Assembly (NCBI RefSeq): GCF_022846255.1
Contig: NZ_AP025682.1
DNA from: Escherichia coli
Lineage (GTDB): Bacteria > Pseudomonadota > Gammaproteobacteria > Enterobacterales > Enterobacteriaceae
Reading direction: 5' to 3' (one strand)
Length of the DNA: 64,000 bases
Both the position numbers and the translations under genes were made by a program. The notes under the pieces are model-generated. The model was not told the origin of the DNA, searched no databases, and saw nothing but the letters and a program-made list of their open reading frames with translations. This document shows, one piece after another, positions 14,147-64,000 of the stretch (position 1 is its first letter; every line of letters begins with the position of its first letter).

Positions 14147-15908
<1,762 letters not shown>

Positions 15909-60804: not shown

Positions 60805-62493
60805 TTGCAATTTGACTACATCATTATTGGTGCCGGCTCAGCCGGCAACGTTCTCGCTACCCGTCTGACTGAAGATCCGAACACAACCGTGCTGCTGCTT
60901 GAAGCAGGCGGCCCGGACTATCGCTTTGACTTCCGCACCCAGATGCCCGCCGCGTTGGCGTTCCCGCTACAGGGCAAACGCTACAACTGGGCCTATGAGA
61001 CGGAACCCGAACCGTTTATGAACAACCGCCGCATGGAGTGCGGACGCGGCAAAGGTCTGGGCGGTTCATCGCTGATCAACGGTATGTGCTACATCCGTGG
61101 CAATGCGCTGGATCTCGATAACTGGGCACAAGAACCTGGTCTGGAGAACTGGAGTTATCTCGACTGCCTGCCCTACTACCGCAAGGCCGAGACTCGCGAT
61201 GTGGGCGAGAACGATTACCACGGTGGCGATGGCCCGGTGAGCGTCATCACCTCCAAACCCGGCGTCAATCCGCTGTTTGAAGCGATGATTGAAGCGGGCA
61301 TGCAGGCAGGCTACCCGCGCACGGACGATCTCAACGGCTATCAGCAGGAAGGTTTTGGCCCGATGGATCGCACCGTCACGCCGCATGGCCGTCGCGCCAG
61401 CACCGCGCGTGGCTATCTCGATCAGGCCAAATCGCGCCCTAACCTGACCATTCGTACTCACGCCATGACCGATCACATCATTTTTGACGGCAAACGCGCG
61501 GTGGGCGTCGAGTGGCTGGAAGGCGACAGCACCATTCCGACCCGCGCGGCGGCGAATAAAGAAGTGCTGTTATGTGCAGGCGCGATTGCTTCACCGCAGA
61601 TCCTGCAACGCTCCGGCGTCGGCAACGCTGAACTGCTGGCGGAGTTTGATATTCCGCTGGTGCATGAATTACCCGGCGTCGGCGAAAATCTTCAGGATCA
61701 CCTGGAGATGTATCTGCAATACGAGTGCAAAGAACCGGTTTCCCTCTACCCTGCCCTGCAGTGGTGGAATCAGCCGAAAATCGGTGCGGAGTGGCTGTTT
61801 GGCGGCACCGGCGTTGGTGCCAGCAACCACTTTGAAGCAGGCGGATTTATTCGCAGCCGTGAGGAATTTGCGTGGCCGAATATTCAGTACCATTTCCTGC
61901 CAGTGGCGATTAACTATAACGGCTCGAACGCAGTGAAAGAGCACGGCTTCCAATGCCATGTCGGATCGATGCGCTCGCCAAGCCGTGGGCATGTGCGGAT
62001 TAAATCCCGCGACCCGCACCAGCATCCGGGAATTCTGTTTAACTACATGTCGCACGAGCAGGACTGGCAGGAGTTCCGCGACGCAATTCGCATCACCCGC
62101 GAGATCATGCATCAACCCGCGCTGGATCAATACCGTGGCCGCGAAATCAGCCCTGGTGTCGAATGCCAGACGGATGAGCAGCTCGATGAGTTCGTGCGTA
62201 ACCACGCCGAAACCGCGTTTCATCCGTGCGGTACCTGCAAAATGGGTTATGACGAGATGGCTGTGGTTGACGGCGAAGGCCGCGTACACGGGCTGGAAGG
62301 CCTGCGCGTGGTGGATGCGTCAATTATGCCGCAAATTATCACCGGCAATTTGAACGCCACGACGATTATGATTGGCGAGAAAATAGCGGATATGATTCGT
62401 GGGAAGGAAGCGTTGCCGAGGAGCACGGCGGGATATTTTGTGGCAAATGGGATGCCGGTGAGAGCGAAAAAACTGAATCGCGATTTGAACTAA
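60805..62493 (+). CDS. betA: choline dehydrogenase (GMC oxidoreductase)
   Basis: Probable TTG start at 60805, 5 nt after AGGAGG (60794-60799), giving [21 protein letters not shown]...; FAD-binding GxGxxG at N-terminus. Start codon is an inference. Confidence 0.9.
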
Positions 62494-63602
62494 CGCAGGA
62501 ACTTACAAGATTGAGAGTTACCGTTCTACGATGAGGACCGAATCCTTATATAAAAAACATAGGTAACTCTCATGCTTCATATCCGCAGTCCCGCCATCAA
62601 ACTTTAAGCCGATTCGCTCAATCTGGCGGATGATGGTGCTATGGATACGCTGATAAACCACAAGTGTAATGCCACTCAGCTTAAGAATCACGCAACCAGT
62701 GCTCCTGGCTAGGGTTACTTGTTCTTTCCCACTCCCGGTTAGCAGTGGTCAGCGATCAACTGCGTAAGCCGGGCGTATTTATCCCAAAGCGTGGAGTAAT
62801 ATCAGGTCTACGCTAAAAAAGTCAATTTATTCGGTTATCATGCACGAAAAGGGGACTTGTGGCGAGTATAAAAATAAGTCAGACCCAAAAACTACGTGGA
62901 GCTTTAAACACGGTTCGTATAATTTATTAGCAGCGATTTATTTTTACCCTTCTTTAATCAGTCATCATGATTAAATATTTTTTATCACAAGATTATCGCT
63001 TCTCTAACATTTTATTTTTTATTTATTATCAATTGATAAGAAAAAATTGTTAGTACGTTTTTGCAAAAAATTAAAAGTGTTGGGATACACTTAAACAAAT
63101 GAACAAAAACCAAACAAACTGAGATTTGCAATCAGAAAAAATTATTCAAGAGAACATCTCTAATTTATTGGTAGCGTCCATGAACGATGATTTCCTCACA
63201 ACCAAAAAGTAAAGAAAATCTTATGATAAGATATATTTGTAAATTAGTATTATTAACGTCAAAGATCTTTTCTTTTCTGCACCCTTACTTTGCAACGCAT
63301 AAAAAACAAATAAAATCAATAATATATGCAGAAAAAGTTATTTTACGTAAAAATAACATTAAATAAATCAAGACTATTGAACATCACTAAAACATTAGAC
63401 GTAATACACATTCACCCCCGCTCCTTGACTCAGGGTTTTAATATTTTTTGTTTCACATCATTGTAGAAAAAATCGCGCATTAAAAATGAGTTGTAGAAAA
63501 ACCGCACAATAAATATTTCATATTTAATCTATTGCGTAGAACTACTATTCAAAAAATCTTATTAATGAGATAATGAAATTACATCGATAACGTTCTGATT
63601 GC

Positions 63603-63635
63603 AGGCACACTTATCTGGGTGTGCCTCTTTTTTTT
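63603..63635 (+). terminator. strong intrinsic terminator: stem AGGCACAC/GTGTGCCT, 8-nt loop, then 8 T
   Basis: Read directly; ends 20 bp upstream of the recombinase ATG. Confidence 0.7.
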
Positions 63636-63655
63636 ACAACTGTACACGGTGGCGT

Positions 63656-64000
63656 ATGACGAGAAAATATCTCACACAGGATGAAGTCTACAGGCTGATG
63701 GATGCAGCCCAGAGCATGTCCTTTCCTGAAAGAAATCGCTGTCTAATTATGATGGCTTTCATTCACGGTTTTAGGGCCAGTGAACTTCTTGATTTACGTT
63801 TATCCGATATTGATGCATCAGGAAAACAACTTAATATCCGGCGTATTAAAAATGGCTTCTCGACAACACATCCTCTTCTTCCTGATGAATATAATCTGAT
63901 CAAGTTGTGGCTTAAGCAGAGGAAGTTAATTGAAAATGGAGTTGAAGGAGACTGGCTTTTTCTCTCCCGGAAACGCCGCCCTATCAGCAGACAACATTTT
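63656..64000 (+). CDS. FimB/FimE-family tyrosine recombinase, N-terminal 115 codons (truncated by window end)
   Basis: MTRKYLTQDEVYRLMDAAQSMSFPERNRCLIMMAFIHGFRASELLDLRLSDIDASGKQLNIRRIKNGFSTTHPLLPDEYNLIKLWL...FLSRKRRPISRQ; the FIHGFRASE, RxKNGFSTTHPL and FLSRKxxPxSRQ blocks match FimB/FimE. Confidence 0.8.
   Translation, partial: MTRKYLTQDEVYRLMDAAQSMSFPERNRCLIMMAFIHGFRASELLDLRLSDIDASGKQLNIRRIKNGFSTTHPLLPDEYNLIKLWLKQRKLIENGVEGDWLFLSRKRRPISRQHF

Follow-up and report, generated by a model that had tools for sequence, protein, structure and literature searches.

The window analysed here was a stretch of 64,000 nucleotides from an Escherichia coli genome (contig NZ_AP025682.1), and the segment of interest was the spacer downstream of the choline dehydrogenase gene betA. 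Judged from its sequence, the segment at approximately 62470–62818 is very probably the dead 5′ third of an insertion sequence (IS) of the IS481 family whose original insertion point was the extreme end of betA; this identification is based on the 5′ 446 bp of the element only. The relic retained the left terminal repeat, a leader of approximately 100 nt and approximately 110 transposase codons. The relic is of an ordinary kind and carries no annotation. It is predicted to have no transposition function and appears to be a fragment that simply occupies the interval from betA to the AT-rich left end of the island PAI-X.

Identification of the IS481-family relic

The betA gene occupied positions 60805–62493 (+ strand) in a 562-codon form, as indicated by the list of open reading frames (ORFs), the strain annotation and the alignment. 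The spacer that followed (62494–62830) had a GC content of 45.7%, compared with 57.3% for betA and 29.1% for positions 62831–63650. Its longest ORF comprised 57 aa and was located on the minus strand (62518–62691). A preliminary description, made from the letters of the window, had reported a coding-like base composition bordered by an AT-rich region and no ORF of at least 60 aa on either strand, and both observations were confirmed.

Positions 62478–62818 of the window aligned to positions 9–446 of a 1201-bp IS481-family element with an 81-bp gap (blastn E = 2e-26, plus further segments). With the intact transposase as the query, tblastn matched the window with E = 6e-5, covering only the N-terminal DNA-binding part. 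A remnant of the left terminal inverted repeat (IS positions 1–27) was located at 62470–62496 (+ strand), based on pairwise alignment and on a four-way alignment with the K-12 selU-ylbG junction and the plasmid-borne IS. A profile of the IS left end matched the region with nhmmer (E = 5.8e-18). Homology in the left repeat was visible from approximately position 5–9 inward, while the outermost 4–8 nt were not recognisable.

The relic of the transposase gene (62572–62818, + strand) comprised codons 1–19 and approximately 47–110 of 346, as determined with blastn, tblastn, alignment and six-frame translation. From the ATG at 62572 it read MLHIRSPAIKL*ADSLNLADD..., compared with MLHTTNPVIKHKAGLLNLAEE... 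in the intact protein. In-frame stops were present at 62605–62607, 62710–62712 and 62740–62742. Near 62745 the frame was shifted, and thereafter VSDQLRKPGVFIPKRGVIS matched TSNELRKQGVFISGSGVRS (residues 91–109 of the intact plasmid transposase). Between 62627 and 62628 (+ strand), the alignments indicated an in-frame deletion of 81 bp (IS 159–239, codons 20–46), which removed the core of the helix-turn-helix.

The relic ended at approximately IS position 446, where the AT-rich island DNA started (approximately 62819). The DDE catalytic (integrase-core) domain was absent: homology ended at codon ~110 of 346, and the locus yielded no 3′ transposase sequence at any position. The right terminal repeat of the IS was not found beyond PAI-X or in the K-12 spacer with blastn or with Smith-Waterman alignment against shuffles (p = 0.07–0.6), nor did an nhmmer profile of the right ends of four relatives match at right junctions of the K-12 or the PAI-X type. 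Since the IS right end was not found, a location of PAI-X inside a complete IS was dropped as an explanation.

The spacer had been suggested to be a decayed remnant of ykgH, which follows betA directly in K-12. However, the proposed TBLASTN comparison with K-12 YkgH gave no match in 62494–64000, ykgH was intact downstream of hyxB in strains FHI_NMBU_03 and H105 and in related strains, and the stretch matched an IS481-family element instead. The spacer does hold a decayed gene, as suggested, but this gene corresponds to the 5′ part of an IS481-family transposase gene, a paralogue of K-12 ylbG, and descent from ykgH is extremely improbable.

The last six codons of betA and its stop codon lay in DNA with homology to the left end of the IS. 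Compared with K-12, a 1-nt indel was present at 62473 (an additional C past an A-run), which shifts the K-12 TGA out of frame; because of this indel, BetA has 562 aa in this strain and 556 aa in K-12. The stop codon was located six codons later than in K-12 (window 62474–62493), and both the K-12 TGA and the TAA of this strain fell within the part that shares homology with the left repeat of the IS.

Intact copies and the origin of ylbG

The first 91 bp after betA belonged to a repeat family found at a median of 2 and a maximum of 9 places per E. coli genome and at 104 places on plasmids. Intact copies of the IS occurred on plasmids of Escherichia albertii, E. coli, Serratia and Klebsiella (for example, NZ_CP117662.1, 62040–63240). 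The intact element was 1201 bp long with the terminal repeats TGTATTAG.../...CTAATACA, an extent that was set by comparing copies with different flanks and that gave the ends TGTATTAGTCGCGAC... and ...GAGCTAATACA. One Serratia contig corresponded to exactly the 1201-bp element. Target duplications of 7 bp were observed for relatives of the IS in Advenella and Burkholderia glumae. The intact IS and the relic were collinear in the left repeat, the leader hairpin and the first ~110 codons (window 62470–62818), but the betA locus lacked two features of the intact IS, namely its right terminal repeat and a full 346-aa transposase including the catalytic domain.

A search of genome contigs for the pattern GAATCNTTATN{12,30}ATGCTTCAT returned mostly chance matches and at least six real copies (E. 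albertii, Pluralibacter with two, Erwinia, Cedecea and Serratia); no betA loci of other Escherichia species were among the matches listed. In a distant blastn search of 62585–62840 against plasmids, only mislabelled chromosomes were matched.

The second copy in K-12 was the selU-ylbG junction (77% identity to window 62478–62633, E = 1e-28). The ATG of ylbG aligned to position 62572 of the window, directly at the end of the 3′ hairpin arm. YlbG matched the NCBIfam IS481 transposase model NF033577 (E = 2e-25, profile positions 2–112 of 284) and also Pfam HTH_29, and full-length 346-aa transposases that were 92% identical to YlbG were annotated as IS481 family on plasmids of E. albertii and E. 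coli. On these matches, K-12 ylbG (b0502; locus L007, 7646–8135) can be identified as the first 123 codons of an IS481-family transposase gene and not as a regulator, with the left repeat and the hairpin intact upstream. The gene is located between selU and RhsD-linked pseudogenes and has the same IS481-family origin as the betA relic, with which it shares the left terminal repeat, identical 11-bp arms and the ATGCTTCAT start. While ylbG was an open N-terminal fragment of 123 codons that included the helix-turn-helix, the betA copy contained three stops and a frameshift and had lost the helix-turn-helix by the 81-bp deletion. The two copies also differed in annotation: ylbG was annotated as "putative DNA-binding transcriptional regulator", whereas the betA copy was unannotated.

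The leader hairpin

The preliminary description had pointed out a 10-bp inverted repeat with a 39-nt spacing just after betA. The repeat was present exactly as described (GAGAGTTACC at 62513–62522 and GGTAACTCTC at 62562–62571), its actual perfect length being 11 bp. According to the alignments, it is the leader hairpin of the IS481-family element itself. The 5′ arm TGAGAGTTACC (62512–62522, + strand), identified by repeat search, fold and alignment, and the 3′ arm GGTAACTCTCA (62562–62572, + strand), identified by alignment with intact copies, enclosed a loop of 39 nt (62523–62561, + strand) with a small inner stem GAGGA/UCCUU in the fold; the loop differed between E. coli lineages. The repeat search extended the perfect 11 bp to 16 nt at 88%. 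For the + strand RNA of 62505–62580, the predicted folding energy was −26.1 kcal/mol (z = −6.35 vs shuffles). The window contained 21 perfect 11-mer inverted pairs with loops of 3–60 nt, compared with approximately 1.5 in shuffles. Since 11-bp inverted repeats occur readily in real genomes, the significance of the hairpin derives from its conservation and not from its mere presence.

Around the hairpin, intact IS copies read ...TTGAGAGTTACC-N39-GAGGTAACTCTCATG. The arms were identical in 14 of 16 aligned copies, and the same arms with a differing loop were observed in Escherichia, Serratia, Klebsiella, Cedecea, Pluralibacter, Erwinia, Vibrio and Advenella. A Providencia copy had a single C-G to U-G change (wobble). 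The relative from Burkholderia glumae (73% aa identity) had the arms CGGGGTTAC and GTAACCCCG, the latter reaching up to its GTG start, and 4 of its 11 pairs were changed on both sides (compensatory). In the 16-sequence alignment, 97.7% of the cells were paired and four pairs showed double changes, values that none of 500 shuffles reached; all four compensatory pairs came from one lineage, the B. glumae relative, which makes the covariation supportive rather than overwhelming. When the partner columns were slid by 1–3 positions, pairing fell to 23–46%.

In the intact copies, the 3′ arm GGTAACTCTCA spanned −10 to +1 of the ATG and reached from the last two G of the GAGG Shine-Dalgarno sequence across the spacer to the first base of the ATG, so that the stem included parts of the ribosome-binding site and of the start codon. 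The Shine-Dalgarno/ATG segment was paired in the minimum free energy folds. In live copies, pairing of the 5′ arm with the 3′ arm would make the ribosome-binding site inaccessible, so that little transposase would be translated. Together, the position of the arms and their covariation suggest that the leader hairpin may silence transposase translation in the manner of IS200. The tnpA 5′-UTR stem-loop of IS200 likewise is a long-loop inverted repeat with its 3′ arm over the Shine-Dalgarno region, and it was shown experimentally to block 30S binding and to limit transposition (PMC4513863). IS200 belongs to the IS200/IS605 family with a different type of transposase, and besides the stem-loop it carries a distinct terminator hairpin as well as an antisense sRNA (PMC4513863). 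A scan with the sigma-70 consensus detected no promoter in the intact IS leader, so that a version of the IS10-style model with an own promoter inside the loop was unsupported. In a permissive Rfam scan of 62300–64000, nothing was found at the hairpin or the relic.

The left border of PAI-X

In the near-identical strain FHI_NMBU_03 (98.8% identity over window 62300–64000), the gene order was betA-ipbA-hyxR-hyxA-hyxB-ykgH, an arrangement that is the island known as PAI-X. The alternative in the preliminary description that the stretch is the edge of the insertion carrying the recombinase gene was borne out in that it was located at the left edge of this ipbA-hyxRAB island. The betA-ipbA arrangement was present in 1882 of 5426 complete E. 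coli genomes with ~86–88% identity, and the allele of the window (337 bp at ≥90% identity) in 102 of the 5426. The relic lies at the left border of PAI-X and is not cargo of the island, its first 115 bp persisting in island-less strains. To its right, an AT-rich leader region of PAI-X without IS homology (29% GC; 62819–63656, + strand) preceded the 5′ part of ipbA (also fimX or hbiF), which encodes a tyrosine DNA invertase according to the annotation of FHI_NMBU_03 and ran past the window's last position (63657–64000, + strand).

A strong hairpin resembling an intrinsic terminator was observed at 63603–63626 (+ strand), with 10 pairs followed by CTTTTTTTT and a T-run up to 63636, approximately 30 nt before ipbA, which starts at 63657. 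Transcription toward ipbA may be stopped at this hairpin (63603–63636). Separately, 63502–63640 had a weak match to the Rfam IS102 sRNA (25.8 bits against a gathering score of 46).

The inverted repeat downstream of betA lies approximately 1.1 kb upstream of this Fim-type recombinase gene, and short inverted repeats bound Fim switches (PMC6458436), which would fit a recombination site at which the adjacent IpbA/FimX invertase operates a fimS-like switch. However, genome-wide screens with overexpressed FimX yielded only fimS, hyxS and ipuS (PMC6458436), and an invertible segment of 39 nt would be far shorter than the 314-bp fimS switch given in PMC5763102. A role as an IpbA recombination site was rejected, being almost inconceivable: the repeat also occurred in K-12, in other strains without ipbA and in every IS copy carried by plasmids from other genera.

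A segment of 96 bp (62743–62838), bounded by a CGGTTA direct repeat, was kept in the lineage of the window and was absent from the island carriers of B2 and O157. Since this segment holds transposase codons ~88–110, the B2 and O157 carriers have a secondary deletion.

The minus-strand frame across the relic comprised 57 open codons in the window and 95–103 in B2 and O157, and its being open in three lineages that differ by ~13% in nucleotides is what a real small protein would predict. Against this, the frames from the three lineages had no Pfam or NCBIfam match, and PGAP had placed no annotation on them in the genome records examined. Between the lineages, approximately one quarter to one third of the amino acids differed at ~12% nucleotide divergence, which is, as a by-eye estimate, about as expected for unconstrained sequence. 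In the lineage of the window, stops within the 96-bp segment interrupted the frame, which is antisense to the transposase relic. A genuine protein is very unlikely on this evidence. The B2 and O157 versions (locus L004, 7277–7620, and L005, 7295–7620, minus strand; ATG version of ~76 aa) were unannotated and without a protein family, and the frame is probably open by chance on the antisense strand.

At the right end of PAI-X, strain FHI_NMBU_03 lacked 95 bp (L001, approximately 15113–15118, vs L004, 13314–13408), with CCCTG microhomology at the borders. The 95 bp held a perfect 12-bp hairpin after hyxB (CCTGCAGGCAGC...GCTGCCTGCAGG) and the K-12-type junction.

The K-12 junction and the history of the locus

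Alignment with K-12 and other island-less strains placed a breakpoint between 62584 and 62585 (junction CATATCC/AGTATTC), at IS position ~115 and four codons into the transposase gene. The breakpoint relative to the K-12 betA-ykgH region, for which the preliminary description had suggested a search, was therefore found inside the stretch. A clean alignment to the K-12 intergenic region, named there as evidence against a remnant or an insertion edge, was obtained in part: the first 91 bp, including the inverted repeat, aligned with ~86% identity, but the remaining ~246 bp had no K-12 counterpart at the locus.

The betA-ykgH spacer of K-12 was 212 bp long and kept only IS positions ~1–115, that is, the left end, the leader and four codons. 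Beyond the junction, the K-12 sequence (AGTATTCATGATG...) corresponded to that which, in B2 and O157, lies right of hyxB and continues from the right end of PAI-X; there it was preceded by ...TATAAATATCC. Across the K-12 breakpoint, the IS homology was uninterrupted in all three island-bearing alleles, and codons 4–20 were recognisable in the versions of the window, B2 and O157. Because CATATCC is present on the left side of the window type, a deletion between two ATATCC copies would give the exact K-12 junction. In the K-12 state, the rest of the relic would have been lost together with PAI-X. We therefore interpret the K-12 spacer as a deletion scar or derivative and not as an empty site. 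Since K-12 retains the IS left end, the leader and four codons collinear with the longer relic of the carriers, the simplest history would be a loss of PAI-X in K-12-like strains.

Four PAI-X-negative strains (L003, L002, L142 and L146) had an identical junction (CATATCC/AGTATTCATGATG) with four different left-flank haplotypes, each of which also occurred with the island. The left flanks were mosaic, with 86–97% identity over 440 bp, and were unusually diverse for E. coli core DNA. The shared junction could reflect either one old deletion spread by dense recombination or recurrent precise loss. The island may have been inserted into the IS, may have arrived with it or may merely abut it. In strain 2013C-4282 (L002, 6208–6462), which is without PAI-X, a truncated hypothetical pseudogene was located at the place of ykgH, indicating a further deletion at the locus in that strain.

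A possible retained role of the hairpin

Instead of persisting as a neutral relic, the hairpin may have been taken over by the host as a structure at the 3′ end of the betIBA mRNA that stabilises the transcript or acts as a weak terminator, a role that we regard as possible but rather doubtful. The hairpin was the first stable structure past the betA stop and survived in island-less strains such as K-12. From the stop codon to the ATG, the 22 arm positions were invariant, whereas 24 of the 58 other positions of the relic leader were variable (Fisher one-sided p = 8e-5), in a sample of 10 E. coli betA copies that represented ~5–6 alleles and in which the right arm served as the extraction anchor. 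On the other hand, the stem was not followed by a U-tract, so that the hairpin is not a canonical intrinsic terminator, and the fold of the K-12 3′ region as a whole was no better than that of shuffles (z = −0.49). We tentatively propose, as an idea with a minority of the odds, that selection has kept the hairpin as a 3′ element of the betIBA transcript and that the IS relic is the true left terminus of PAI-X, with the island-less strains (K-12 included) being secondary deletion derivatives.

Implications

The very probable IS481-family origin explains the unannotated 340-bp gap that adjoins a studied uropathogenic island. It also places the betA stop codon, and with it the length polymorphism of 556 or 562 aa, in DNA that appears to be IS-derived. 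Silencing of the transposase by a leader structure is a known theme, to which the conserved and covarying hairpin would add an IS481 subfamily. PAI-X is usually described as a marker acquired by uropathogens, and a loss of the island in K-12-like strains would qualify this picture.
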